DNA from: Pseudobdellovibrionaceae bacterium
GTDB taxonomy: Bacteria; Bdellovibrionota; Bdellovibrionia; Bdellovibrionales; UBA1609
Direction of reading: 5' to 3'
Length of the DNA stretch: 64,000 nt
Assembly: GCA_023898385.1 (NCBI GenBank)
Contig: CP060220.1
Coordinates: forward strand, 2,655,683-2,719,682
Shown here: positions 2,374-44,942 of the stretch, piece after piece
Numbering within the stretch: the first letter of the stretch is position 1
Layout: the number at the start of each line of letters is the position of its first letter
Made by a program: the position numbers and the translations under genes
The notes under the pieces: model-generated
The model's input: only the letters and a program-made list of their open reading frames with translations
Told to the model about the DNA's origin: nothing
The model's database searches: none

Positions 2374-3867
2374 CTAGACTCCTTCCGCAGCAGAAACCGC
2401 TTCATCAATATCAGAGGGTGGTTGAGTCGACAATACGTCGGCGGGAGAGCCCACATCAGCTGGATCTTGTTTCTTGAGGCCTTTACGCTTTTTTCGTTTT
2501 CGTTTTTTCTTACCAGAAGCGTTGAGCTCAACGGGAGTCTCGTCCGCCGCCGAGGTGACGGTGTCGTCAAGATCATCTTCAACCAAATCTTCGGGTTCAG
2601 CATTTACCGTGGCTGCCTCAAGAGCCAGGGCCTCACCACTGCGAATATTTAAATTCGTTGGCAAACTTTTTTTACTTTTGGCGCCAAGCTTTTCAAGTCG
2701 TTGGGCTTGCACTAAAACGCGGCTTTCTAATCGCGAAAGTCCCTTTTCGTATTCGTCGCGTGCTTTTTCAAGATGTTTTCCTATTCCCACATAGGCATCC
2801 ATAAAATCACAAATTCTTTTGTGCAGCTCTTTACCGGCGTCTGAAATGCGTTCGGCGTTCTCCGCCAGTCGCTCTTCATTCCATCCAAAACGAATAACTT
2901 TCAGCAAGCCGATCAGTGTGGGAGGAGTGGCAATAAGAATTTTCTTTTCAATGGCATATTCCATTAACTCTGGATCAGCTTCTAGAGCCGCGTAAAGAAA
3001 TGATTCGTTAGGAAGAAACATCACGGTAAAGTCTGGGGATTCTTTAAGCAAATCTGAGTAGGCCCGTGAAGATAGTTTTTTAATATGGTCTTTTACGTGG
3101 CGCCCATGGCGAGAGAGTTCTAGGTTTCTCTGTTCGTCTGTGTTGGCATCGAGATAGGCCATAAAGGCATCAATGGGTGTTTTGGCATCAACCACCACGA
3201 ATCGGCCGCCGGGCATTCTGACGGTCATGTCAGGGATTATGCGATCGCCGTCATCGGTGTTTTGAGTGTCTTGAAAGACGACGTCGGAATACTCAGACAT
3301 GCCTGCTAGTTCCACACAGTTTTTCAACTGCACCTCACCCCAGCGGCCTCGAACGTGCGGTCGCTTAAGGGCGTCTTTAAGGGCTCTAGTTTCTTCACTC
3401 AATAACCCGTTGATTTCAGCCACGCGCTTTATTTCTTGTTCCACCGAAGTGAAGGCCCGAACACGATTGGTTTCAATGTGCGTGACCTGTTCATGATATT
3501 TCTTGAGGGCCTCATTAAGCGGCTGAACAAGGTGATTGATCGCGGTTTGGCGTTTTTCAAGATCGCCCTTTGCCACTTGCACTTCTTGTTGCAACATGGT
3601 TTTTGCGAGATCCATAAATTGGCGATTGTTACCCTCTAAAGCGGATGCGGCTAAACTTTTAAACGTGTCGCTCAGTTGGGCCTTTGCGCTTTCGAAGGTT
3701 TTTCTCTCCGCATCGAGGGTCGACTTGGCGGCTTCCAGTTCGGCTTGAGTGCGGGCGAGATCAATTTTTATCTCGGTAAGAAGACGTTGATGACGTCGGT
3801 TAATGTACACAGCGGCCGTCAGGGCGAACAAAAACAAGACTAAAAATACCACGGAAATAGGATCCAT
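2374..3867 (-). CDS. rmuC: DNA recombination protein RmuC
   Basis: N-terminal TM helix, long coiled coil, then an RmuC nuclease-like core (GEVQLKNCVELAGMSEYSDVVFQ..PDMTVRMPGGRFVVVDAKTPIDAF..TVMFLPNESF). Unusual acidic then poly-basic tail (GKKKRKRKKRKGLKK). Confidence 0.85.
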   Translation of the reverse strand: MDPISVVFLVLFLFALTAAVYINRRHQRLLTEIKIDLARTQAELEAAKSTLDAERKTFESAKAQLSDTFKSLAASALEGNNRQFMDLAKTMLQQEVQVAKGDLEKRQTAINHLVQPLNEALKKYHEQVTHIETNRVRAFTSVEQEIKRVAEINGLLSEETRALKDALKRPHVRGRWGEVQLKNCVELAGMSEYSDVVFQDTQNTDDGDRIIPDMTVRMPGGRFVVVDAKTPIDAFMAYLDANTDEQRNLELSRHGRHVKDHIKKLSSRAYSDLLKESPDFTVMFLPNESFLYAALEADPELMEYAIEKKILIATPPTLIGLLKVIRFGWNEERLAENAERISDAGKELHKRICDFMDAYVGIGKHLEKARDEYEKGLSRLESRVLVQAQRLEKLGAKSKKSLPTNLNIRSGEALALEAATVNAEPEDLVEDDLDDTVTSAADETPVELNASGKKKRKRKKRKGLKKQDPADVGSPADVLSTQPPSDIDEAVSAAEGV

Positions 3868-13444: not shown

Positions 13445-13627
13445 CCCGCCTTCGAGAGTGAACAGAGGCCAGCGGGGAAAGTGTGGGGCGCCAGCACCTC
13501 ACGATGTGCATGGCGTATCCGGGTTGCGGCACGCAAGCGACGCAATCCGAAGACGACATGCGGCCACTCGTGCCGTGCTGGCGCCCCACACTTTCCCCGC
13601 TGGCCTCTGTTCACTCTCGAAGGCGGG
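13445..13627. repeat. Foldback element A1: 53-bp perfect inverted arms plus 77-nt imperfect-hairpin core
   Basis: 13445-13497 is the exact reverse complement of 13575-13627. Core 13506-13565 matches 58/60 to the reverse complement of 22099-22158. Confidence 0.9.
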
Positions 13628-13631
13628 CGAA

Positions 13632-14510
13632 CTACACTTTTATTGTAACAATTTTTTTCATTGCAACTCCACCAATAACTTGGAGAGCTAACATAATAAA
13701 GAGAGCAACCCATCCTAAAGGCTTAGTGAACAAGGGCATCACGTAAGCAGGATCAATTGCAAGAAATACAACTAACAATAGAAACGGGACTAAAGTAATA
13801 ATAATTCCTTGTGTGACACCTTGAGCTGTCATGGCTTCGATTTTCTTTTCAACTTTTTGTCGCTCACGAACCGTGGTGTTAATGGTTTGAAAAGTTTCGG
13901 CGAGATTTCCGCCTGTTTCTTTAAGAATAATTACAGAAGTCACAAACATTTGCACATCTTGCCGGGGGATCCGGTCAGCCATTTCTACCAATGCTTCTTC
14001 AAGGGACATCCCCAGGCGAATTTTGTTCAGAACAAGTTTGAATTCTTGAGACAGGGGCCCTGAGAGATTGCCAACCACTCGCTCCATAGACTGAGTGATG
14101 CTTAAACCTGCACTCACACCGTTGGCCATAATGGTCATGCCATCCACCATTTGGTCGACCAGTCGATTGCATCGTTTTTGCCAAAGGTTATTGAGGTATG
14201 TTTTTGGAAGCTGGAGGCCCAGTAAAGTAATGGCGACAGCAAATATTAAGCCGGGCACAACATTGGGCCAAAGCAGTAGAAAAACCACCAGTCCCAGGCC
14301 AAACGAAAGCAGCAAAACTGTGATGGTGATTTTCTTTTTATCCACGTCGAGCATCATTCGATCCATAAGCTCCGTGATTTCTTCTCGCGTGCCGATGGTT
14401 CTCTTGTAGAAGAATCCTATAATCCGATCCGAGTAAAGATAGGATAAGATAAATACAACTATGGCAAAAGCCGGAATGACAAAAAACTCTTCGCTGAATA
14501 ATGCGGTCAC
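13632..14510 (-). CDS. tadB: Tad/Flp pilus assembly inner-membrane protein (T2SS-F family, TadB/TadC-type)
   Basis: 292 aa with a T2SSF domain pattern (MVDGMTIMANGVSAGLSITQSMERVV..LKETGGNLAETFQTINTTVRERQKVEKKIEAMTAQG) and TM helices. Overlaps cpaF by 4 nt. Confidence 0.85.
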   Translation of the reverse strand: MTALFSEEFFVIPAFAIVVFILSYLYSDRIIGFFYKRTIGTREEITELMDRMMLDVDKKKITITVLLLSFGLGLVVFLLLWPNVVPGLIFAVAITLLGLQLPKTYLNNLWQKRCNRLVDQMVDGMTIMANGVSAGLSITQSMERVVGNLSGPLSQEFKLVLNKIRLGMSLEEALVEMADRIPRQDVQMFVTSVIILKETGGNLAETFQTINTTVRERQKVEKKIEAMTAQGVTQGIIITLVPFLLLVVFLAIDPAYVMPLFTKPLGWVALFIMLALQVIGGVAMKKIVTIKV

Positions 14511-16831
14511 TTTTCGCCTCCGCTAGTGCCGTCGCCGGAGGCTTTTTTAAGAGGCTGAGGGCGAGGGCTAGAAGTGGTTGCGGTTTGTGTTCGTGGCCGC
14601 ACAGGTGTGGGGCCAGCTTTTGAGCCCGCCGCTGGAGAATTAGGGTCACTGGCCCCGCCGTTTGATGTGAATAAGTCTCGAGGGACCATTATGCCTCGTT
14701 GCTCAAATTTTTCAATAAAGGTGGGAATACGTCCCATGGCCTGAAACTGCCCAACCACTTTTCGATTTTTATCAAAACCGGTTTCTTTAAATCGGAAGAT
14801 CTCTTGCATGGTGACGGCCTCACCCTGCATGCCAACGATTTCCGTGATGCTGCTGATTTTACGGGAGCCGTCACTGAAACGCGTGATTTGTACGATAAGA
14901 TTGACGGCACTAGCAATTTGCTCTCGAATGGCTCGAGCCGGGAGGTCCATTCCAGCCATTAAACAAAGTGTTTCAAGGCGCGAAATCGCTTCACGAGGGT
15001 TGTTAGAGTGAACTGTGGTCATTGATCCATCGTGGCCTGTATTCATCGCAGCTAGCATATCAAGGGCCGCACCATCGCGAGTTTCTCCCACCACGATGCG
15101 ATCGGGACGCATTCGGAGAGAGTTTCTAATAAGGTCGCGAATTGAAATTTCTCCGGCCCCTTCCATGTTGGCTGGTCGGGTTTCTAGGCGAACCACGTGT
15201 TCTTGTTTCAACTGTAGTTCTGCGGCGTCTTCGACAGTGATGATTCGTTCATTGGTAGGTATAAATCCAGAAAGCACATTCAATAGGGTTGTTTTACCAG
15301 TACCTGTGCCGCCTGATATAATAATGTTCAAGCCTTGTTCCACGCAAATTCTCAAAAAATCAGCCATTCCTCGCGTCATTGATTTGAAACGATCTGTATA
15401 GTCCAAAATAGTTACCCGTTCAGATGGAAATTTTCGAATGGTAACGGCAGGTCCATCGATGGCCAGAGGTTCAATCACCGCATTCACTCGGCTTCCATCG
15501 GCCAGGCGAGCATCGACATAAGGAGTTTTCTCATCGATACGCCGACCTAAAGGAGTAACAATTCTCTCGATGACATTTTTAAGCTGCTGATTGGAAGTGA
15601 ATGTCACGGGGCTTAATTGAATCTTACCACTTTTTTCAATGTAAATTTGTTTCGCGCCATTCACCATGATTTCTGTAACTCGAGCATCTTCCAGCAACTC
15701 TTCGAGCGGGCCAAGGCCCAAGGCTTCATCCAAAACTTGTTTGATCACCTGACCTCGCTCCTCGCGTGACAAGTGAGAGGCCATTCGGTCTGTGAGTTGC
15801 GACACCACACGTGTGGTTTTGTCACGCAGCTCTTTTTCTTTACTGGGGTCACCCTTGGAACTTGTAAGGTCTTTTTTTAGGTCCATTTCGCGAATGAGTT
15901 GATGGTGAATTTGCGCCTTTAATAGACTTGGGGCGTCCATTTCATTTTTTTGCCCTTTAGCCTGTGATCCCGATGGGGCGGTGCTGTCGAGAGCGGGCAG
16001 GTCTGAGGTGGATTGTGTGCCTCGAAGATTTTTTGGCCTAGAAGTGGTTTTTAATTTTTGTAACAAGCCGCCTGTCAGCCGGCGGGCGACATCGCGATAC
16101 CCCTGCGCCATGGGGCTATTGGGGGTGGTTAACATAAAAGGAGCCGATCTTTGCAGCGAAGAGTACGCAGTGGCCTCATCGTTGGCAATGAGACCGATAA
16201 TAGGGCGATTTAGACTTTGTGCAATTGAGTTGGGATTCAATGCATTTCTACCCATCTTATTGATCACCACTTGAACCATTTCGGCCGGCACGGTGGCGGT
16301 CACTAGGTCGTGTAGCATTTTTTTGGTTTGATTGACCACGAGAACTTCTGGAGTTGATACCAAGAGAATGACACTGGCATTTTCAATCGCGGCCATCTGC
16401 AAGTCCTGTAGGTCATTTCCGATATCGGCAATGATAAACTTAAAATGTTGGCTCACTGAATATAATTGTTTTTTAAACAACTCCGGGGATGCGGCAAGAG
16501 TTTGATCGGGAGTTTGCACGGCGCCCAGGTAAGACAATCCTGAGGAATGACCTGTTAGGAGCGAGCTGAGAGTTTGCGCCGTGAGGGAGGCCTTAAATTG
16601 AGTGAGGTCGTTCACGGTTTTGTTCGGTCTCACACCAAGAATGACGTTTTGGTCTCCACAGCTTCTTGCGTCGAGATCAATAAGTAACGTTTTCGACCGC
16701 ATTTCTTGCATCAGAGTAATAGCAAGGTTAGCCGCAAAAACGCTTTTACCGACGCCACCTTTGCCGCCGGCCACTACAATGAGATGTGAGTTTTCGTGAA
16801 TCGCCAAAACACCACTCCTTTGGTTACTCAT
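14507..16831 (-). CDS. cpaF: Fusion ATPase: N-terminal MinD/ParA-like (TadZ/CpaE-type) domain plus C-terminal CpaF/TadA secretion ATPase
   Basis: N-terminal deviant Walker A VVAGGKGGVGKS with a MinD/CpaE-like fold to about aa 265. C-terminal CpaF core (ISGGTGTGKTTLLNVLS, VVGETRDGAALDMLAAMNTGHDGSMTTVHSN). Pro/Ser/Thr-rich tail. Confidence 0.9.
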   Translation of the reverse strand: MSNQRSGVLAIHENSHLIVVAGGKGGVGKSVFAANLAITLMQEMRSKTLLIDLDARSCGDQNVILGVRPNKTVNDLTQFKASLTAQTLSSLLTGHSSGLSYLGAVQTPDQTLAASPELFKKQLYSVSQHFKFIIADIGNDLQDLQMAAIENASVILLVSTPEVLVVNQTKKMLHDLVTATVPAEMVQVVINKMGRNALNPNSIAQSLNRPIIGLIANDEATAYSSLQRSAPFMLTTPNSPMAQGYRDVARRLTGGLLQKLKTTSRPKNLRGTQSTSDLPALDSTAPSGSQAKGQKNEMDAPSLLKAQIHHQLIREMDLKKDLTSSKGDPSKEKELRDKTTRVVSQLTDRMASHLSREERGQVIKQVLDEALGLGPLEELLEDARVTEIMVNGAKQIYIEKSGKIQLSPVTFTSNQQLKNVIERIVTPLGRRIDEKTPYVDARLADGSRVNAVIEPLAIDGPAVTIRKFPSERVTILDYTDRFKSMTRGMADFLRICVEQGLNIIISGGTGTGKTTLLNVLSGFIPTNERIITVEDAAELQLKQEHVVRLETRPANMEGAGEISIRDLIRNSLRMRPDRIVVGETRDGAALDMLAAMNTGHDGSMTTVHSNNPREAISRLETLCLMAGMDLPARAIREQIASAVNLIVQITRFSDGSRKISSITEIVGMQGEAVTMQEIFRFKETGFDKNRKVVGQFQAMGRIPTFIEKFEQRGIMVPRDLFTSNGGASDPNSPAAGSKAGPTPVRPRTQTATTSSPRPQPLKKASGDGTSGGEK

Positions 16832-16877
16832 CGGAATAGTGGAAAAAAATAATGAGTCTAAATTTTAGGCCGAGCCT

Positions 16878-18398
16878 TTAGTCGCGAATTCGAAACTTGC
16901 GCTTAATGCGGTCCGCACCGGCACTGGCCGAGCTCTTGATGATGGGAGTGACAAAGACCACAAACTGACTCTGGTTGCGGCGAAACGACTTAGAAGCATA
17001 CAGTGAAAACAGCGGGTTGGCGCTGGTATTTTCAGGTAATCGGTTAAAGTCAGTGCCGCTTTCATTAGAAATCAATCCACCCACGGCTGCGCTCATACCA
17101 CTTCGCACGACCACAGAGGTCTGAATTTCTCGACTATTAGTGAGGGGCCCCTTATTTGTAATACCAACTAAGCTTTTCACAGAAAAATTGAGGGCAAGGC
17201 TGACGCTGTCGGACCGAGATCCAATAATTGAAGGGGTCACTGTGGTGCGAATACCTGCATCTTCAAAACTTGTGGAGTTTTGTCCCTCAGAGGTCACTGT
17301 TTGGTACGGGATGCGTTGAACTGATTCGAGCTTTCCTTGTTTACCATCTTCTACAATTAGGCTTGAGCTTTGTAAAACGCGGGCGTGTCCGTGTTCTTTA
17401 GCCCAATTTAGCTTCGGAAGTAGATTTGAGATTGTACCAGTAATGCTAGAAACCACGCCGCCGGGTCCACGGTCTGTGAACTCAAGTTGGGTGTTATCGC
17501 CTATATCAGGAGTCCATTGAAAGCGAAAACCTTTGGTGTAGTCTTTTTTGAGCTCAACGTAATGCACGACAATTTGAATGATCTTATTGGGTGTCTGCTC
17601 GGGAGCCGGTTTTACCTGGATGAGATTTACAATGAGTTCACCACTTACTTGTTTAATCAGTTTATCCATTTCAGCCTGACGTACGACAACGTCAGGCATA
17701 TACGTACGAGCAATCTTAAAGGCTCGCTCCACTTCTTCAGGGCTATTGGCCATACCTTCTAATAAAAATCGTCCGTTCACAGCCGAAACAGTGATCTCAG
17801 GATTACCAATTTTTCGTTCAATAAATTGTGCGATTTTATTTTGGGCAATCACGCTTAGAGTCACAAGAGACGCGGCCAGGTCACCATATTGTTTTACCAC
17901 GCTATGGATGCGATCCATGTCTTTTGGCAATAAGACTTCGCCGTCAACGATGACCCGGTTATTGGCAATTTTAATTTTTACACCTTCAATTTCTGCAAGG
18001 AGCGCTCGAACTTCTCTGGCCACTTTTTGCAGATCCACCTTTTTCACATCCACCCGAATATCATAGATAACGGCGCCGGTGGTGGGATCTTTAATCAAGA
18101 TGGTACCTACGCCGATCTTTTGGGGCACTAGCCGGAGGATTTTTCGGTTTGAATCAAACTGAAGTTTCAAAAGGTTTTTGTATGATCCGCCCTTGTTAAA
18201 ACCGGCAGGGGCTAGGGGCACTCGAATATCACGATCAATGCCTACAAATAGAGAGACATACATCTTTTTTCGTTGGGCAGCTTCAGAAATAGTGGCCGGG
18301 CCGAACAAAAAGACCAAGCTCAACACGGCGAGGAGGGCCAATAGTGGTCCCCTGCGGGCATCGAGTGTGAAATAGTTTTTGCTCATCCAATTCGTCAT
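16878..18398 (-). CDS. cpaC: Tad secretin CpaC/RcpA
   Basis: Signal/TM N-terminus, a BON-like region, and a secretin C-domain (RIPYQTV.., TSVVVRSGMSAAVGGLISNES.., QFVVFVTPIIK). Confidence 0.9.
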   Translation of the reverse strand: MTNWMSKNYFTLDARRGPLLALLAVLSLVFLFGPATISEAAQRKKMYVSLFVGIDRDIRVPLAPAGFNKGGSYKNLLKLQFDSNRKILRLVPQKIGVGTILIKDPTTGAVIYDIRVDVKKVDLQKVAREVRALLAEIEGVKIKIANNRVIVDGEVLLPKDMDRIHSVVKQYGDLAASLVTLSVIAQNKIAQFIERKIGNPEITVSAVNGRFLLEGMANSPEEVERAFKIARTYMPDVVVRQAEMDKLIKQVSGELIVNLIQVKPAPEQTPNKIIQIVVHYVELKKDYTKGFRFQWTPDIGDNTQLEFTDRGPGGVVSSITGTISNLLPKLNWAKEHGHARVLQSSSLIVEDGKQGKLESVQRIPYQTVTSEGQNSTSFEDAGIRTTVTPSIIGSRSDSVSLALNFSVKSLVGITNKGPLTNSREIQTSVVVRSGMSAAVGGLISNESGTDFNRLPENTSANPLFSLYASKSFRRNQSQFVVFVTPIIKSSASAGADRIKRKFRIRD

Positions 18399-18414
18399 TT
18401 CTTATCCAGTTATC

Positions 18415-19290
18415 CTATATATCTTTAAAAGGGCCCGATCGCCGAGTTTTCTTTTGTTGCGGCACAGGCTGCGGTGCCACTCGCGCCGGCTCTCGCACAG
18501 TTTCACGAACTTTTTGTGGGGCCACTTGTCCAAGTACAGTTTGCAAATCTGATGAAGGAATAGGGCGATCTGCGTGATCGCTGGGATGCCTAAGAGTTAA
18601 AAACAATGAACCTGGAGAGGTTGATAGTATGTAAATCAAATTCTGAGCTTGTACAGGTGAGGCTTCCACAGTGACCGAGTTAAACGAAAGATCATCTCGA
18701 ATATTTCGAATATACTCATCTCGTCCTTGCTTTTCAAAAAGTCGGGGCAGTTCGTTGACCACGCGAACACCTGTGGCAAGAATAACCACATCTTGTAAAA
18801 TAGTCTTTATTTCTCGGCGTTGGTTGGCACCCTTGCCGATATCAACGGCGGCCACCACGTCAACTCGGTCACCGGGCTTGATCAGTTTTGCGACGCCACG
18901 CATGTCATCAATTGGAATAGTGACGGCCCGTTTGGATGGGGCCACTTGCATGGCGAGTCCAGTAACGGGGCCTGGTTCCATAATTTTACTGCGCAAGATT
19001 TGTTCTCCAGCTTTAATGGGAGCCAATGCAACTAAACCAACAGCATCTTCGGGGTCGGCTAGATGTTCCGGCTCCAAGTAGCTCACGGGTTTACTCACAA
19101 GCTCCAACATGGAAACATCAATTGTTTGCATTTCATTGATATCAGCTTTTGCCACAACGACTTTTTTCTGAGCTCCAAATTTCTTTGTAAGTTCAGCACT
19201 TTTTTCTTGAGTGTAACTATAAAGAAGAAACACGGCAAAAATGGCGGAAAAAACCGATATCCATAATGTCCTCGTTTCGTTCTGATTCAT
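18415..19290 (-). CDS. cpaB: Flp pilus assembly protein CpaB/RcpC
   Basis: N-terminal TM, SAF-like segment (VVVAKADINEMQTIDVSMLEL..APIKAGEQILRSKI), and RcpC region (RAVTIPIDDMRGVAKLIKPGDRVDVVAAV). Confidence 0.85.
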   Translation of the reverse strand: MNQNETRTLWISVFSAIFAVFLLYSYTQEKSAELTKKFGAQKKVVVAKADINEMQTIDVSMLELVSKPVSYLEPEHLADPEDAVGLVALAPIKAGEQILRSKIMEPGPVTGLAMQVAPSKRAVTIPIDDMRGVAKLIKPGDRVDVVAAVDIGKGANQRREIKTILQDVVILATGVRVVNELPRLFEKQGRDEYIRNIRDDLSFNSVTVEASPVQAQNLIYILSTSPGSLFLTLRHPSDHADRPIPSSDLQTVLGQVAPQKVRETVREPARVAPQPVPQQKKTRRSGPFKDI

Positions 19291-19304
19291 ACACTTACCC
19301 TTTT

Positions 19305-19817
19305 TTATTCACCACAATTTGCGGTGACACAAATGCCGTATCCCACCATCACCCACCCCGGGCTGACCTCGACAGCATTACCGCCATCTTTTCGGTAGGT
19401 TTCTTCAATTTCATAAATTCTTTCTGAATGATCTTTTGAAGTGCCCTTAATTTCTTTCTGAGAGCCTGGACCACGACCAAAGGCTAAGGGCCTCTCAGAG
19501 GCAAAAAAGTTTTGGTCATTACTTAGGTCGGCCTCCGACACCACAGCATGAAAGCGGTAACCTGTGGGTGCGTAGTTGAGCAGGTCACCCTGTCCTTGAT
19601 CTCGAAAAAAGCTTACGTTGGTTCGATTTCGAAAGGTTTCAAAGGCGTAGGTTCGCGCCCCGATGGAATGCAAAATTGCGGTGTGAACAAAACCAAACAG
19701 ACCAAGTCCATAGGTAATGAGAACAACGAAGACGACCACAAGAGGCAGGGCTTCAATAGTGGCAAGACCTTTTTGATTGTTGTGAACATGACAAGGGCGT
19801 TTAATCATTGTCAGCAC
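19305..19817 (-). CDS. TadE-like pseudopilin
   Basis: NQKG|LATIEALPLVVVFVVLITYGLGLF is a TadE-type N-terminal motif. Confidence 0.7.
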   Translation of the reverse strand: MLTMIKRPCHVHNNQKGLATIEALPLVVVFVVLITYGLGLFGFVHTAILHSIGARTYAFETFRNRTNVSFFRDQGQGDLLNYAPTGYRFHAVVSEADLSNDQNFFASERPLAFGRGPGSQKEIKGTSKDHSERIYEIEETYRKDGGNAVEVSPGWVMVGYGICVTANCGE

Positions 19818-20452
19818 CCGTTATCCGAAACAGGTTGATAACCCCGTCGGCTATATCGCCCGGCCTCTTTATAAGAGCCGCTGCCGATTTGTTGGATATG
19901 CTGCCAGCGCTGAGAATTAAAATAGTCACACTGTTTTTGCGTAACCTCCCGAGAAAGAAAGCTACCCACCTTAGTGGTAAAGCCGTCAGAATCATTGCTG
20001 TCGCCGGAGGTGGAGCCAAAAAACGGAATTTGAAAATCCAGGATGTGCGAGGTTAAAGTGATTTGGACGCCGTGAAACGCCTGTCTATCTGGCGGGCTGT
20101 GGTCTGTGTACTGCGAGGCTTCTTTTGCCGGTTCATCAATAATTTTTGCTTCTTTGCTAAGTGTGAACCACCCATTGTCTAGAACGCCGGAAAAAACACC
20201 ATTGTTTCTGAGTTGGGCATACTTTCTTTGAGCATAGTCAAATTGGGACTCGTGATCCTTGTGAGAGCCCAAATAGCTTCGAGCTGTAGCAAAAGTCATA
20301 TATTGAGCTATTTCTACTGTGGTGAGCGTGATTGCCAGTGAAAAAAGAATCACGGTTAAACCCAGTATCAGCGTCATGGCAAACAGGTAGTCAAGGGTGA
20401 TAAAGCCCCGTTGTTTTTTGAGTTTAGAGGGTTTAAGAGTGGACCACTTCAT
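19811..20452 (-). CDS. TadE/TadG-like pseudopilin
   Basis: KKQRG|FITLDYLFAMTLILGLTVILFSLAI is a prepilin-like leader plus hydrophobic helix (D at the usual E position). Operon position between other tad genes. Confidence 0.6.
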   Translation of the reverse strand: MKWSTLKPSKLKKQRGFITLDYLFAMTLILGLTVILFSLAITLTTVEIAQYMTFATARSYLGSHKDHESQFDYAQRKYAQLRNNGVFSGVLDNGWFTLSKEAKIIDEPAKEASQYTDHSPPDRQAFHGVQITLTSHILDFQIPFFGSTSGDSNDSDGFTTKVGSFLSREVTQKQCDYFNSQRWQHIQQIGSGSYKEAGRYSRRGYQPVSDNGC

Positions 20453-20700
20453 TATGGTTTCACCGTTAAGTGTCTTGCATGTTGATTGGGGTGTTTATTG
20501 TAGCTGCGCGAGGGCGGCTCCCATACGCCATTTTCAATCATTCCAGAAAGAGCCAACCATGGGCCATTGACGAGTTGGGCAATCAATTGATTTTGGCGAA
20601 ATGTTTGAGCAATAAAAAGCGTTAATCCAATGACTAAAACCATCATAAGTATAAGTTCAGTGGTCATTTGGCCCAGTTGATTTTTTTTGAGGGTCTTCAT
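20452..20700 (-). CDS. Flp-like minor pilin/pseudopilin (83 aa)
   Basis: Start at ATG 20700, in an ATGA overlap with the peptidase gene stop. MKTLKKNQLG|QMTTELILMMVLVIGLTLFIAQ resembles an Flp-type G|xxxxE leader. Confidence 0.6.
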   Translation of the reverse strand: MKTLKKNQLGQMTTELILMMVLVIGLTLFIAQTFRQNQLIAQLVNGPWLALSGMIENGVWEPPSRSYNKHPNQHARHLTVKP

Positions 20701-21206
20701 AGGCTGCCCCCGAACGGCCCAACTGCCAAATGCGTGAGCCACCCAAAAACCAAAGCCACGGTGAAGGGTATTTTGTGTAATGAAAGCTGTTTTCGGCTTT
20801 TATCAAAAGTGGCAATCTTGGCCGTGTTTTTTAAAAGTTGAATTAGGTCTTTTTGTAGAGTCACTCGAATTAAACCGAGAAGGGCGCCCCAAATAAAAGC
20901 ATACATCAGTACCCACAAAACGGCTGTGGCATCCGTAGCGAGGGCAAAGGCGAAGATTAATTTTACATCACCGCCGCCGATCATGCGGGCTAGAAAAAGA
21001 GGTATGGTTAACCCGATAGCCACAGTCAGTGAAAGCAGGGCGGTTTGCAGGCCAGCCATCCCATTGAATAAACCGGCAGAGCCAATAGCAATAACAGCGG
21101 CCGACAGTGTCAGCCAGTTATGAACTTTTTTTGATCTGAGGTCATCCACCAGGCCCGCAATTAGAATCAGGCTCGGCAAAAGGTAAGACAAGACAGCGAG
21201 GCTCAT
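20697..21206 (-). CDS. cpaA: A24-family prepilin peptidase (CpaA/TadV)
   Basis: Polytopic membrane protein with both catalytic Asp contexts (LIAGLVDDLRSKKVHNWL and MIGGGDVKL). GGAGAAGG RBS before ATG 21206. Confidence 0.85.
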   Translation of the reverse strand: MSLAVLSYLLPSLILIAGLVDDLRSKKVHNWLTLSAAVIAIGSAGLFNGMAGLQTALLSLTVAIGLTIPLFLARMIGGGDVKLIFAFALATDATAVLWVLMYAFIWGALLGLIRVTLQKDLIQLLKNTAKIATFDKSRKQLSLHKIPFTVALVFGWLTHLAVGPFGGSL

Positions 21207-21400
21207 CGTTGAACCTTCTCCCACCTGAGGCGCTGGCCATTGCGCAAAAAGCCGTGCCCCACGGAAATATTGCGTTCCATGCGCGCAGCTAAGCGGGGCG
21301 TGGCATTGCGAAAGGTTTCAATGGGTCCACTGTCACCAAAGAAAACCCCCAACATGATAAACGCATAAATAGATAATAAGAGTATAAACTCGGTACTCAT
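21203..21400 (-). CDS. Small membrane protein (65 aa) whose N-terminus resembles a processed Flp pilin
   Basis: MSTEFILLLSIYAFIMLGVFFG aligns with the post-cleavage part of Flp (AVEYILLLVVVVGIVIFFG). ATGA overlap with the cpaA start. Confidence 0.5.
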   Translation of the reverse strand: MSTEFILLLSIYAFIMLGVFFGDSGPIETFRNATPRLAARMERNISVGHGFLRNGQRLRWEKVQR

Positions 21401-21620: not shown

Positions 21621-22034
21621 GACAATTCCCCTTTATTGTTTCCTTCTTTTCGGCCAGGTGCCGAAAAAAATTAATATTTACCCCTGAAAAATCACGCGCT
21701 GTGGGAATATGAAATCACGTTACAGATATTCGTTTTAACAACTTCAGTTTAACATAACTCATTGAAATAGAAGCACTATAAATTAATACCGTAAAAAACT
21801 TCGACAGTGATGGCTTTCTCCTTAAAGGACTTACGGCCTGGGTCCTGTAAAAATATTGGGCGCTTCGTTCTTCTCTTCTCATGAGGCTTTAAATTGGTTT
21901 TTCCACTGGGCAGGACCCATAAGGGGGGCATTGGTTTGCTGGCCAATATGTTAAGATAATTATTGAGAGCTCCGATGAGTGGTTTGTTCGGCTGCTGGCT
22001 CATAGATGGGAACATGGACGGGACACAGACTGGG

Positions 22035-22221
22035 CACAGACGAAGGCACAGAGACCAAGACGATTGGATGCGGATGCCTGCGTCTGCCTGGCGCTTTCGG
22101 CCGCATGTCGTCTTCGGATTGCGTCACTGGCGTGCCGCAACCCGGATACGCCATGCACGACGCGAACGGCAGACGCAGGCATCCGCATCCAATCGTCTTG
22201 GTCTCTGTGCCTTCGTCTGTG
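22035..22221. repeat. Foldback element A2: 54-bp perfect inverted arms plus 79-nt core (inverted relative to A1)
   Basis: 22035-22088 is the exact reverse complement of 22168-22221. Core 22099-22158 matches the reverse complement of 13506-13565 at 58/60. Arms are unrelated to the A1 arms. Confidence 0.9.
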
Positions 22222-22254
22222 ATCTGGGTTTTTCTTCTTTTTAGGAGATGGTGA

Positions 22255-23103
22255 TTGGGTTTTCATAGGCGACATTTTAGACCATTGTCCTGCCAGGCTG
22301 GGCAGGGGGCGGTGGAGTACATTTTAATGTTGGTCATAGTGGTTTCCATCGTTATTGGTTTGATCTATCAATTTAATAAAGATTTTGAACGATATGCGAA
22401 CGCCTTTTTCGGGGATTATCTCACTTGTTTGATTGCTATGGGAGAGTTGCCTTCCTTGGGTGGTGGAGGTGGCAGCGAATCGGCTTGCCTTGCTGAATTG
22501 CAGGCCTTTAATCAGGCGGGTCAGCAAATGGCTTCGCGTGGAGCGGGTGCTGGAAATAAATCTGGTGAAAACGCAGAGGGTGAAGAGGGTGACGGCGAGG
22601 GTGAAGAGGGTTCGGGTGGTGACTCTAAGGCCAACAAGCGAAGTGGTGGTGGTGCCACAGCTGGTGGTGGTGTACGCAGCCGTCGTCGGGGTAATCGTTT
22701 TCGCGCTGGAAATAAATGGAAAGATCAAGAGGTGGCCTCGCAGAAATCAGGTAAAGAAGAAAGTGCCACGGCCGGGTATGTAAATGTTAATTCTCCCACT
22801 TCGGGTGGTAATGCGGAGCCTTTACGTCAAAATCGCATGTTGATTTCTCGTGGTGGCGCCAGTGAAAAAGAAGAAAAAGAAGCCAAAAGAGCTAAGCCTT
22901 TGGTGAAAACAGAAGAAGCCAGAGGGCGAGGTCAACGAATCAAAATCAATAGAACACTCGCCAGTGACCAGAAAGATCTCGACGTGGAGGCTGAATTCAC
23001 TCTGGGAGGTCTTGTGCGATTTTTGATCATCGTGGGGATACTCATTGCCTTGTTGATGTTTTTGGGTGGTCAAGCCCTTCAACTTTCTAAATCCATGGAA
23101 TAG
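22255..23103 (+). CDS. Flp-prepilin-like protein with ~230-aa Gly/Glu/Lys/Arg-rich extension and C-terminal TM helix
   Basis: TTG start with GGAG 6 nt upstream. ..SCQAGQG|AVEYILMLVIVVSIVIGLIY is nearly identical to the Flp leader and helix. The rest is low complexity (GEGEEGSGGDSKANKRSGGGATAGGG..) and ends with LVRFLIIVGILIALLMFLGG. Confidence 0.6.
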   Translation: MGFHRRHFRPLSCQAGQGAVEYILMLVIVVSIVIGLIYQFNKDFERYANAFFGDYLTCLIAMGELPSLGGGGGSESACLAELQAFNQAGQQMASRGAGAGNKSGENAEGEEGDGEGEEGSGGDSKANKRSGGGATAGGGVRSRRRGNRFRAGNKWKDQEVASQKSGKEESATAGYVNVNSPTSGGNAEPLRQNRMLISRGGASEKEEKEAKRAKPLVKTEEARGRGQRIKINRTLASDQKDLDVEAEFTLGGLVRFLIIVGILIALLMFLGGQALQLSKSME

Positions 23104-38801: not shown

Positions 38802-39011
38802 TTACTTCTTACGACGAGCAGTTTTCTTAGCTGCTTTCTTGCGAGTGGCTTTTTTAGCAGCCTTCTTGCGAGTAGCTTTTTTAGCTGTTTTCTTTGCAGC
38901 TTTTTTGCGAGTAGCTTTTTTAGCTGTTTTCTTAGCTGCTTTTTTACGAGTAGCTTTCTTTGCAGTTGTAGTTGTCTTCTTAGCGGCTTTTTTTCTTTTC
39001 TTCGCTGCCAT
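38802..39011 (-). CDS. Histone H1-like lysine/alanine-rich DNA-binding protein (70 aa)
   Basis: ATG 39011 with an AGGAGG RBS. MAAKKRKKAAKKTTTTAKKATRKKAAKKTAKKATRKK.. is built from 39-bp (13-aa) tandem units. Confidence 0.75.
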   Translation of the reverse strand: MAAKKRKKAAKKTTTTAKKATRKKAAKKTAKKATRKKAAKKTAKKATRKKAAKKATRKKAAKKTARRKK

Positions 39012-41883: not shown

Positions 41884-42045
41884 AAGGCACGCTTCGAAGA
41901 AGCCAACCGCCGCGGGAGCCCACCTGCAAAAAGGCTCAGACATTCGTTCGGCAGCAGTGCTCGCTTTTAGCGAGCACTGCACCGATCCGAACTCGCTTTT
42001 TGCAGATGGGCTCCCGCGGCGGTTGGCTTCTTCGAAGCGTGCCTT
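41884..42045. repeat. Foldback element B1: 50-nt arms (49/50 complementary) plus nested-hairpin core
   Basis: 41884-41933 pairs with 41996-42045 with one mismatch. Segment 41928-42009 is 82/82 identical to 42920-43001. The inner hairpin is gcagtgctcgc-tttta-gcgagcactgc. Confidence 0.9.
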
Positions 42046-42057
42046 TAGATTTTACTT

Positions 42058-42888
42058 TTGGAGTTGTTCTTGGATATTTTTCAGTCGATTTTTTTAGGGA
42101 TCGTTCAGGGTCTTACTGAGTTTTTGCCCATTTCTAGTTCTGGGCACTTGGTAATTTTTCAAGAATTGCTAGGCGTGGAGCAGCACAGTATTGCTTTTGA
42201 TGTAGCGGCTCATTTGGGGACCGTCTTGACGGTCATCACGCTCTATTTTGCAACTGTGCGCCAGATGCTTTGGGAGGTGATCACTTATCCTTCTCATCGA
42301 CGGTTCACTCCTGGCATCAAGCTGATGTTATTGATCGTCGTGGGGAGTGTTCCAACAGCCATCATTGGTCTGAGTCTTAAGGATATGTTTGAGTCGTTGT
42401 TTTCTAATTTGTTGGCTGTGGGTATTTTTTTGACAATCACGGGTTTGATTTTGTTTTTAACTCGAAACAAGGCTCGCATTTCACGGCATATTGATGTGCA
42501 TAGCCTCGAAGACGTAAAGGCCATGCACTACTGGCAGGCAGCACTTATTGGTGTGGCGCAAGGTATGGCTATCGCGCCTGGAATTAGTCGTTCGGGATCG
42601 ACCATAGCAGCGGGCTTGGCACTGGGAATCGATCGAAAAACCACGGCGCTTTTTAGTTTTATGTTGTCATTGCCGGCAATTATGGGCGCTGGATTATTGC
42701 AGTTGCGTCATATTACCAGTTGGGATCACCAAGTGTTGTTGAGCTTAGGTGTGGGCTTTTTGACGGCCTATTTATCGGGTTTGATGGGCTTATGGGGAAT
42801 TTTGTATTTTGTAAAAAAAGGCCGACTTGAATATTTTAGTTATTATCTTTGGGTTGTTGGGCCGGCAGTTATATTCTGGAGCCTATGA
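42058..42888 (+). CDS. uppP: Undecaprenyl-diphosphate phosphatase
   Basis: IVQGLTEFLPISSSGHLVI.., ..GISRSGSTI.. are canonical UppP/BacA motifs. TTG start with no in-frame ATG nearby and no obvious SD. Confidence 0.9.
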   Translation: MELFLDIFQSIFLGIVQGLTEFLPISSSGHLVIFQELLGVEQHSIAFDVAAHLGTVLTVITLYFATVRQMLWEVITYPSHRRFTPGIKLMLLIVVGSVPTAIIGLSLKDMFESLFSNLLAVGIFLTITGLILFLTRNKARISRHIDVHSLEDVKAMHYWQAALIGVAQGMAIAPGISRSGSTIAAGLALGIDRKTTALFSFMLSLPAIMGAGLLQLRHITSWDHQVLLSLGVGFLTAYLSGLMGLWGILYFVKKGRLEYFSYYLWVVGPAVIFWSL

Positions 42889-42889
42889 G

Positions 42890-43023
42890 CCACCAGCCGC
42901 CGCGCCGGAACCCATCTGAAAAAAGGCTCAGACATTCGTTCGGCAGCAGTGCTCGCTTTTAGCGAGCACTGCACCGATCCGAACTCGCTTTTTGCAGATG
43001 GATTCTGGCGCGGCGGCTGGCGG
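42890..43023. repeat. Foldback element B2: 36-nt arms (32/36 complementary) plus the same core as B1, same orientation
   Basis: 42890-42925 pairs with 42988-43023. The core is identical to B1. Starts 1 nt after the uppP stop codon. Confidence 0.9.
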
Positions 43024-43076
43024 ATCATGGGCATCCAAAGGGAATCCGATACCTTTTGGATGGGGAGGGGAAAGAT

Positions 43077-44520: not shown

Positions 44521-44596
<76 letters not shown>

Positions 44597-44601
44597 AAAA
44601 T

Positions 44602-44630
44602 AAAAAAGCCCGAGTGGGCTTTTTTTATTT
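44602..44630 (+). terminator. Rho-independent terminator after tRNA-Phe
   Basis: aaaaaAGCCCgagtGGGCTttttttattttt. Confidence 0.75.
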
Positions 44631-44749
44631 TTGATGGTTTGGCCGAAGCCAAACCATGATGGTCTCCGACCTTCTCCTCGCTTTGCTCGTCGTGCGGTCT
44701 CGACCACAAGCTGCATCAAAATGCTTTGCATTTTGCCGCAGTCTTGAAA

Positions 44750-44772: not shown

Positions 44773-44942
44773 TCGTGATCTTTATACAGTACATTTTTTT
44801 GTTTGGGTCACTCAAAAAGCCCTTTGGGCTTTTTTTGTTTTTTTGGATTGAGTTTATTCCCTTTCATTTAACTTATGCCACTAGTGCGATGACGACCCCG
44901 GGGTTGAATTCTTGCGCAAAGTGTCGTAGTTGTTTCAGCCTT

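Follow-up and report, generated by a model that had tools for sequence, protein, structure and literature searches.

Genes and hairpins of the window

The window analysed here is a stretch of 64,000 nucleotides (64 kb) from a Pseudobdellovibrionaceae bacterium (contig CP060220.1, positions 2,655,683 to 2,719,682). The genes identified among 40 open reading frames (ORFs) scanned with Pfam are of the usual chromosomal kind, and include a Tad/Flp pilus operon and genes for an RHS protein, NadE, GroEL, SucCD, Mla, Suf, BacA, a Ser/Thr kinase and RmuC. These ORFs do not include a transposase, a reverse transcriptase, an HUH nuclease or an integrase, and no partner protein for the hairpin core described below was identified among the window genes. 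In an Rfam scan of the window, tRNA-Phe alone passes the threshold. Long hairpins of two families, referred to here as A and B, are present in the window.

Some other features of the window are recorded in passing. The RmuC-family gene lies at 2374-3867 on the minus strand (Pfam E = 2e-90). A role in restricting recombination at short inverted repeats has been attributed to this family, but the occurrence of the gene in the window is probably a coincidence. In the part of the window with the lowest GC content, a tandem array at 38817-38965 is made up of six copies of a 44-nt unit (64-86% identity, with a spacing that alternates between 27 and 12 nt), and seems to encode, on the minus strand, a putative repeat protein rich in Lys and Ala. 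The tRNA-Phe gene (44521-44596) is followed by two similar hairpins composed of an A tract, a GC stem and a T tract (44596-44642 and 44814-44846), which look like bidirectional terminators.

The element at the centre of this study, A2, is a 187-nt hairpin (22035-22221), the arms of which are complementary at 54 of 54 positions around a 79-nt apex, confirming the initial annotation of the locus. Its parts are as follows.

22035-22088, no strand: left basal arm of A2, 54 nt, 59% GC, of a sequence specific to A2
22089-22167, minus strand: apical module of A2, an imperfect hairpin with a type-2 neck and a C(GCCA)G loop, from the consensus fold of seven cores
22168-22221, no strand: right basal arm of A2, with its end 33 nt upstream of a 282-aa gene that starts with TTG at 22255

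The apical module is recognised by nhmmer with an E value of 7.5e-24, and its G.U pairs and GNNA loop are carried by the minus strand. The folding energy of A2 is about -160 kcal/mol on either strand, corresponding to z scores of -18.6 to -20.4 relative to dinucleotide shuffles. The reverse complement of 22099-22158 is identical at 58 of 60 positions to 13506-13565 of a second hairpin, A1, and both differences, at 13535 (A/C) and 13538 (C/T), fall within the apical loop, exactly as had been described. It had also been proposed that similarity decays gradually outside this 60-nt core, at about 12 of 20 positions. The measured ungapped identity of the A1 and A2 flanks directly outside the core is lower, at 10 of 20 on each side, and this zone corresponds to a “neck” that occurs as two subtypes with compensated pair changes. 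A 27-nt core probe allowing up to three mismatches finds only the A1 and A2 sites in the window, and matches none of 100 shuffles. The left arm of A2, at the same tolerance of three mismatches, has no second match inside the window.

Two short similarities adjoin A2. The pentamer CTGGG directly adjoins the left arms of A2 (22030-22034) and of another copy, L093 (473-477), and is seen again at 22224-22228, 2 nt beyond the right end of A2, and in none of the other copies. Just to the left of A2, the 17-nt sequence CGGCTGCTGGCTCATAG (21989-22005) matches the reverse-complemented outer arm of the family-B hairpin B2 (42883-42899) at 16 of 17 positions, which may be due to chance or represent a remnant of an element (BLAST E = 0.39 in the local set).

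Distribution of family A

Family A is represented by five complete copies (A1, A2, L008, L010 and L093), and by at least eight distinct loci if half-arms in chimeric contigs are included. Apart from A2, the complete copies are:

13445-13627 of the window, plus strand: A1, with arms at 13445-13497 and 13575-13627 that are complementary at 53 of 53 positions, and its core at 13498-13574
140-318 of L008: copy with two to three mismatches between its arms
1022-1192 of L010: copy with arms complementary at 46 of 46 positions, cut by the contig end
478-653 of L093: copy with arms complementary at 50 of 50 positions

A 21-nt core probe matched six metagenome contigs, and further contigs were reached via neighbouring proteins and via a spurious ORF over the core. 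The latter, USN46822.1 (H6626_11515, annotated as a hypothetical protein), was the one hit of a six-frame translation of the core against 5.8 billion proteins, and leads to copy L093. The 21-nt probe has no match in 185,579 species-representative genomes, a set that does not contain this lineage; in the same set, the closest relatives of the NadE protein are from Bdellovibrio and Bdellovibrionales metagenome-assembled genomes (MAGs), at no more than 61% identity. Neither the family-A nor the family-B core is present in IMG/VR. Judging from the contigs recovered, family A appears to be confined to one uncultured Pseudobdellovibrionaceae lineage, where it is found in several independent metagenome assemblies. 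In other Bdellovibrionota (80 loci, 1.45 Mb) there is no hairpin with arms of at least 30 nt, nor any core detectable with nhmmer, and such hairpins are not a generic genome feature. No orthologous locus was found in a sister species, as the relatives of the neighbouring protein are either 100% or at most 55% identical, and the element is absent from two syntenic distant relatives.

L011 is the same as A2 base for base, and L096 the same as A1, with each coming from another sample. Since they are identical in independent assemblies, the hairpins are real DNA and not an assembly artefact. Contigs that end within an arm are L001, L002, L004, L005, L094, L095 and L097. L003 and L009 were considered as candidate “armless” copies and rejected, as both are assembly chimeras joined via the common core: the right side of L009 is the right arm of L093, and L003 fuses A2 with a third copy. 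Chimeric short-read contigs of this kind also give rise to spurious ORFs, for example USN46822.1 and P0002. L007 (170-420) and L012 (255-510) have a complete core, but the pairing of their arms is poor. In L007 only 5 bp of pairing extend past the neck, and in L012 the inner ~19 nt and outer ~17 nt of the arms are paired while the middle ~30 nt differ. These two may be decayed copies that have kept their core, or additional assembly chimeras.

The apical module of family A

The conserved unit is larger than the 60 nt originally delimited, comprising 79-85 nt (the 60-nt core plus the neck). Alignment and consensus folding of seven cores give an imperfect hairpin with 28 consensus pairs. At its tip is a CAC/GUG helix under a C(GNNA)G loop, below which are a 9-bp helix with an invariant G.U pair and a 3x3 internal loop (AUC/AAG), and further parts of the module are two short helices, one of which holds a second invariant U.G pair. 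The neck subtypes are CACGA...TCGTG and CGCG...GCG, with L007 carrying a compensated CCCGA/TCGGG variant, and covariation is seen at three neck pairs (AU/GC/CG, AU/UA and UA/CG). At the middle of the loop, the seven cores have CA, CC, AT, TT, AA, AA or a single A, and the ~70 remaining core positions are the same in all seven. A conserved mismatch bubble of 2-3 nt separates the module from the arms.

The module is asymmetric with respect to strand. Both G.U(T) pairs and the GNNA loop lie on one strand, the one that reads GCATGG, and the complementary strand has A.C mismatches and a TNNC loop instead. Both of the mismatches in the arms of L008 are also G.T on the GCATGG strand. Because of the asymmetry of the G.U pairs and the loop, the module is apparently read in single-stranded form, as either ssDNA or RNA, and it is most plausibly a candidate recognition structure for a protein.

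Genomic context and a possible role as RNA

All copies seen are intergenic, and where the downstream start could be located (A1, A2 and L093) it is 23-34 nt away. A1, which has a type-1 neck and the opposite orientation to A2, is located between a tadC-like gene and the RHS gene, 5 nt past one stop codon and 34 nt ahead of the next start, and on the basis of this spacing is almost certainly co-transcribed with its neighbours. Relative to the downstream gene four copies are antisense and one is sense, which is not significant, and there is no significant orientation rule with respect to replication either (its direction being judged from GC skew), as A1 and A2 differ from each other. Terminator-like sites do not overlap the elements, and in most copies the tails are not T tracts.

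The inverted pair A1 and A2 brackets the 8.4-kb Tad/Flp pilus operon (13632-21224), which comprises a tadC-like gene, a CpaE/F-like ATPase, a secretin, RcpC and a prepilin peptidase. The closeness of A1 and A2 is unlikely to result from random scatter of ~10 copies over 3.3 Mb. The gene to the right of A2 has other upstream neighbours in two syntenic relatives (L102 and L103), placing A2 at a synteny break.

The short distances to downstream starts and the almost certain co-transcription of A1 could point to a role in RNA, with the elements acting as hairpins for RNase III processing, stability or translation control in operon transcripts and 5' untranslated regions, and with pairing maintained by selection. 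G.U pairs and GNNA loops are typical RNA features, and there is a precedent in bacterial MITEs (miniature inverted-repeat transposable elements), the transcripts of which form long stem-loops that affect adjacent mRNAs (PMC2229807). However, the four copies A1, A2, L010 and L093 together have 203 arm pairs (53+54+46+50) with no mismatch and no G.U pair, and selection can not be expected to keep 54 of 54 pairs or to mirror a 2-nt indel of the kind found in family B. A generic double-stranded RNA function would also leave the invariance of the core unexplained, the orientation to the downstream gene is mixed, and the elements match no Rfam family and lack a terminator-like T tract. We therefore consider a role as RNA quite improbable as an account of the family.

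Sequence, composition and origin of the family-A arms

The perfect arm stretches of the five complete copies are 46-54 nt long (with L010 cut by the contig end). The arms of A1 and A2 had been reported to share no obvious similarity, which is borne out by a Smith-Waterman score of 9 as compared to a mean of 7.7 for shuffles (p = 0.25). Among 45 arm-arm comparisons between copies, none is above shuffles after correction. The sole hint of residual homology is a 13-mer, AACAGAGGYCAGC, present in A1 and L093 (p = 0.013), and was dropped since, with 45 tests, it loses significance on correction.

The GC content of the arms is 54-68%, as compared to a mean of 46.1% (standard deviation 8.0%) for 50-nt windows of the genome, with a joint p of ~5e-8. 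A GC excess of this size means that the arms were not drawn at random from local or host DNA. In the 5' to 3' direction leading to the core, eight arms contain 95 A, 43 T, 127 C and 113 G, and this T-poor 5' arm is seen in every copy, on either strand, for example at 13445-13497, at 22035-22088 and, in family B, at 41884-41920. Internal short repeats, as a test for stuttering synthesis, are marginal when pooled (p = 0.06-0.09), with significance for a single copy in A2 only (p = 0.02).

No source for the arms was found. In the window and the fetched loci, the only matches of the arms are to themselves and to the same two hairpins in other assemblies. BLAST searches returned no match in 50,697 phage records and only chance-level matches in 72,556 plasmids (E = 0.8), and IMG/VR contains no match to 20-22-nt probes derived from the arms of A1 and A2. 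Five arms translated in six frames had no match among 5.8 billion proteins, but this search had no power, as it also missed the positive control P0001, with 16 residues from the L093 arm.

These results bear on the earlier suggestion that the arms carry information, as hairpin-RNA guides or as a memory of phage, plasmid or prey DNA. Such a role would suit arms that are copy-specific, ~50 nt in length and of a composition foreign to the host genome, in a lineage that, from its taxonomy, is probably predatory. Yet the phage, plasmid and IMG/VR searches, in collections that are limited, lend it no support, the elements are single and dispersed and not arrayed, there are no effector genes in the window, and the same arms are fixed in metagenomes of different samples. 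The ordinary drift seen in the arms of family B also counts against it, and we regard information-carrying arms as highly improbable.

Also suggested was that a small core inserts at the centre of pre-existing long palindromes. Conceivably, single-stranded hairpin loops could attract elements that target ssDNA, but there is no empty GC-rich palindrome (arms of at least 20 nt with a short loop) in the 64-kb window and ~10 kb beyond it, and none with arms of at least 30 nt in 1.45 Mb of related genomes. This weakens the proposal to the point that it is hardly credible.

A more serious contender is that only the core is mobile, in which case ~80 nt would insert and build a new perfect inverted repeat each time, for example by the folded core priming itself and copying ~50 nt of DNA, whether adjacent, captured or untemplated, and the copies would be young. 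We think this possible, if on balance unlikely. It would explain why the cores are near-identical and the arms without residual similarity in 45 tests, why the arms are flawless in four of the five complete copies, why their lengths cover a narrow range (from at least 46 nt, in the contig-cut copy, to 54 nt), and why there is a sharp border between core and arm at the conserved bubble of 2-3 nt. The middle loop bases change in nearly every copy, as if remade, and the GC-rich, T-poor 5' arms are unlike host DNA. However, the same composition says that the arms were not copied from local flanks, the searches above yield no source for them, the covarying neck pairs suggest long-term evolution, and we know of no enzyme that would make arms de novo around a core. 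In a more specific version, the apical hairpin would be a mobile single-stranded module that acquires its ~50-bp GC-rich, T-poor arms from non-local DNA by self-primed fold-back synthesis; this DNA would be captured or made without a template, and the arms and loop would be born with each copy by an undescribed mechanism of transposition or capture. This version we judge to be distinctly unlikely.

Family B carries mirrored changes in its arms

A second family, with a core unrelated to that of family A and the same overall architecture, is represented by two hairpins:

41884-42045, plus strand: B1, with a 62-nt imperfect apical hairpin and 50-nt arms that have one mismatch, upstream of bacA/uppP
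42881-43032, plus strand: B2, with the core of B1 (62/62) and six mismatches in 45 arm pairs, downstream of bacA

B1 and B2 are in direct orientation and bracket the single gene bacA/uppP (42058-42888) in a cassette-like manner. In contrast to the core-only scenario, their arms are clearly homologous, over ~38 nt, with similarity dropping outward from the core in the same gradient that had been noted for family A. When the four arms are aligned over 45 columns, 28 columns are identical in all four, and ten differ between the copies yet are mirrored within each copy. Among the mirrored changes is a 2-nt indel, CC being present in both arms of B2 and in neither arm of B1. Unmirrored mismatches number seven, one in B1 and six in B2 (four transitions and two transversions).

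The alignment indicates that the arms of family B are inherited and then diverge, which argues against arms made anew with each copy, at least in this family, and that changes pass from one arm to the other. Transfer between the arms is supported in particular by the mirrored indel, which can not plausibly arise from independent mutation and selection. Of the explanations initially offered for perfectly paired, copy-specific arms, the copying of one arm from the other is thus directly supported by the ten mirrored positions, indel included. Very strong selection on pairing is weakened as an explanation, since it can not give mirrored indels and B2 tolerates mismatches at 6 of 45 pairs. The core, on the other hand, resists change, as it is identical at 62 of 62 positions despite ~22% mirrored divergence in the arms; as a rough estimate, the probability that 62 core positions remain unchanged at this divergence is 0.78^62, or less than 1e-6.

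Comparison with known palindromic repeats

Known bacterial MITEs are bounded by conserved terminal inverted repeats (4-24 bp) and usually by a TA target-site duplication, and their stems contain mispairs (PMC2229807, Table 1). The hairpins are similar to MITE-like repeats such as Correia/NEMIS, ERIC/IRU, RUP and RPE in size (100-200 bp), and in being interspersed, mostly intergenic, multicopy and lineage-restricted with a long stem-loop (PMC2229807). They differ in that conservation is apical, the arms are perfect over 46-54 nt (to which the neck adds a few pairs), and the termini are unrelated. The outer 12 nt are unrelated between copies and so do not constitute conserved terminal inverted repeats, and no direct repeat indicative of a target-site duplication adjoins the arms of A1, A2, B1, B2, L008 or L093.

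In REPINs, the arms (REPs) are conserved and the central spacer is variable. The REP/REPIN system, with its RAYT (a Y1 HUH protein), is similar in involving extragenic palindromes, and recognition of a folded strand would suit the strand asymmetry of the core. However, the REPIN pattern is reversed here, the apex being conserved at 58 of 60 positions or better and the arms being copy-specific, and no RAYT-like gene is found among the 40 window ORFs scanned with Pfam.

Integron attC sites are comparable in being defined by structure and in recombining in a folded, single-stranded form that has extrahelical features specific to one strand; family B also resembles an attC cassette in flanking a single gene in direct orientation. 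Their basal R''/L''-L'/R' boxes are conserved, and their centre is variable. No attC boxes (RYYYAAC...GTTRRRY) were found by regular-expression search of both strands of the six elements and 20 nt of flank. Whereas attC sites have bulged arms and occur in arrays, here the arms are perfect and the copies dispersed, and family A is scattered among housekeeping genes, with no integrase in the window and so no indication of cassettes arrayed by IntI. The view that the pattern is the inverse of that in MITEs, REPINs and attC sites therefore holds up: there are no conserved termini, target-site duplications or attC R boxes. Nor is there a core confined to two places or a set of conserved arms, either of which would have spoken against it, as the core is present at more than two loci and the arms differ from copy to copy.

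The elements are not intrinsic terminators, lacking the short GC stem followed by a T tract. Permissive Rfam scans give only sub-threshold hits to uc_338 (35.8 bits, gathering threshold 120) and MIR7125 (31 bits, threshold 100), both of which are generic long-hairpin models.

The closest parallel in terms of process is quasipalindrome correction (the Ripley model; PMC7202029, PMC5941160), in which one arm is copied from the other, giving mirrored substitutions and indels. Family B has the signature of such template-switch correction, with ten mirrored as compared to seven unmirrored positions. Quasipalindrome correction has been described as a source of mutations in short inverted repeats, and not as the upkeep of a repeat family with 50-bp arms and a conserved apex. 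On this comparison, the best reading of the element class is an interspersed, foldback-type palindromic repeat of ~150-190 nt located on the chromosome, and the element is best filed as a variant interspersed palindromic repeat that is a member of no named family.

A proposed model of a constrained apex with arms templated from one another

The explanation that we tentatively prefer, at somewhat less than an even chance, is that of a lineage-specific palindromic repeat with a constrained apex read as a single strand, and with arms kept complementary by DNA synthesis templated from arm to arm. According to this model, the basal stem would carry no sequence information, and Watson-Crick complementarity would persist through repeated re-synthesis of one arm on its partner. 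This would probably take place by template switching within the hairpin during replication or repair (“quasipalindrome correction”), and possibly also at the time a copy arises. Any change confined to one arm would be either erased or mirrored, such that the arms would drift apart between copies and stay perfect inside each copy, with the apex fixed. In bacteria, it is established that imperfect inverted repeats are made perfect by template switching (PMC7202029), and the process has been invoked to account for why perfect inverted repeats are conserved in Proteobacteria (PMC5941160).

Arm-to-arm templating would account for arms that are exclusively Watson-Crick paired, for mirrored substitutions and indels, and for the tolerance of decaying copies. 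Templating at the level of DNA is favoured over selection at the level of RNA because G.U pairs, which RNA selection would tolerate, are missing from the 203 arm pairs. The decaying copies (L008 with two to three mismatches and B2 with 6 of 45) suggest that pairing is restored intermittently and is not absolutely enforced. The model is also supported by positions that seem to be free, namely the middle of the loop and the neck pairs, which look saturated while the core is invariant.

Some observations are less easily accommodated. Correction can not make arms diverge faster than mutations are supplied, and given that the family-A arms are unrelated, templating needs old copies together with very strong purifying selection on ~70 core nucleotides per locus, unpaired ones included. 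Frequent conversion of the core is an alternative to such selection, but would homogenise the loop too, and the loop is not homogenised. The GC-rich arms and the excess of A over T are not predicted by templating, and biased correction or selection for stability would be needed in addition. Finally, the direct evidence of mirrored changes is from family B and not from family A, and it is mainly from family B that we infer the templating mechanism; we likewise infer the single-strand reading of the module and any protein partner. What the sequences show directly is the architecture, the constraint on the core, the mirrored changes in the arms and the strand asymmetry.

Implications

The hairpin family is genuine, reproducible across independent assemblies and of unusual architecture. 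One practical consequence concerns the quality of MAGs from this lineage, which is affected because the hairpins break short-read assemblies and yield chimeric contigs. With a conserved apex and free arms, the elements reverse the rule for bacterial palindromic repeats, and the pattern suggests that one arm of the stem is copied from the other. Family B, with its mirrored substitutions and indel, is a natural case of long-palindrome evolution by arm-to-arm templating. If the arms are instead made de novo with each copy, a new mechanism of mobility would be implied. If templating is true, template-switch correction would prove able to maintain perfect palindromes of 50 bp genome-wide, and the elements would also point to a new protein that recognises the conserved core in its folded, single-stranded form.
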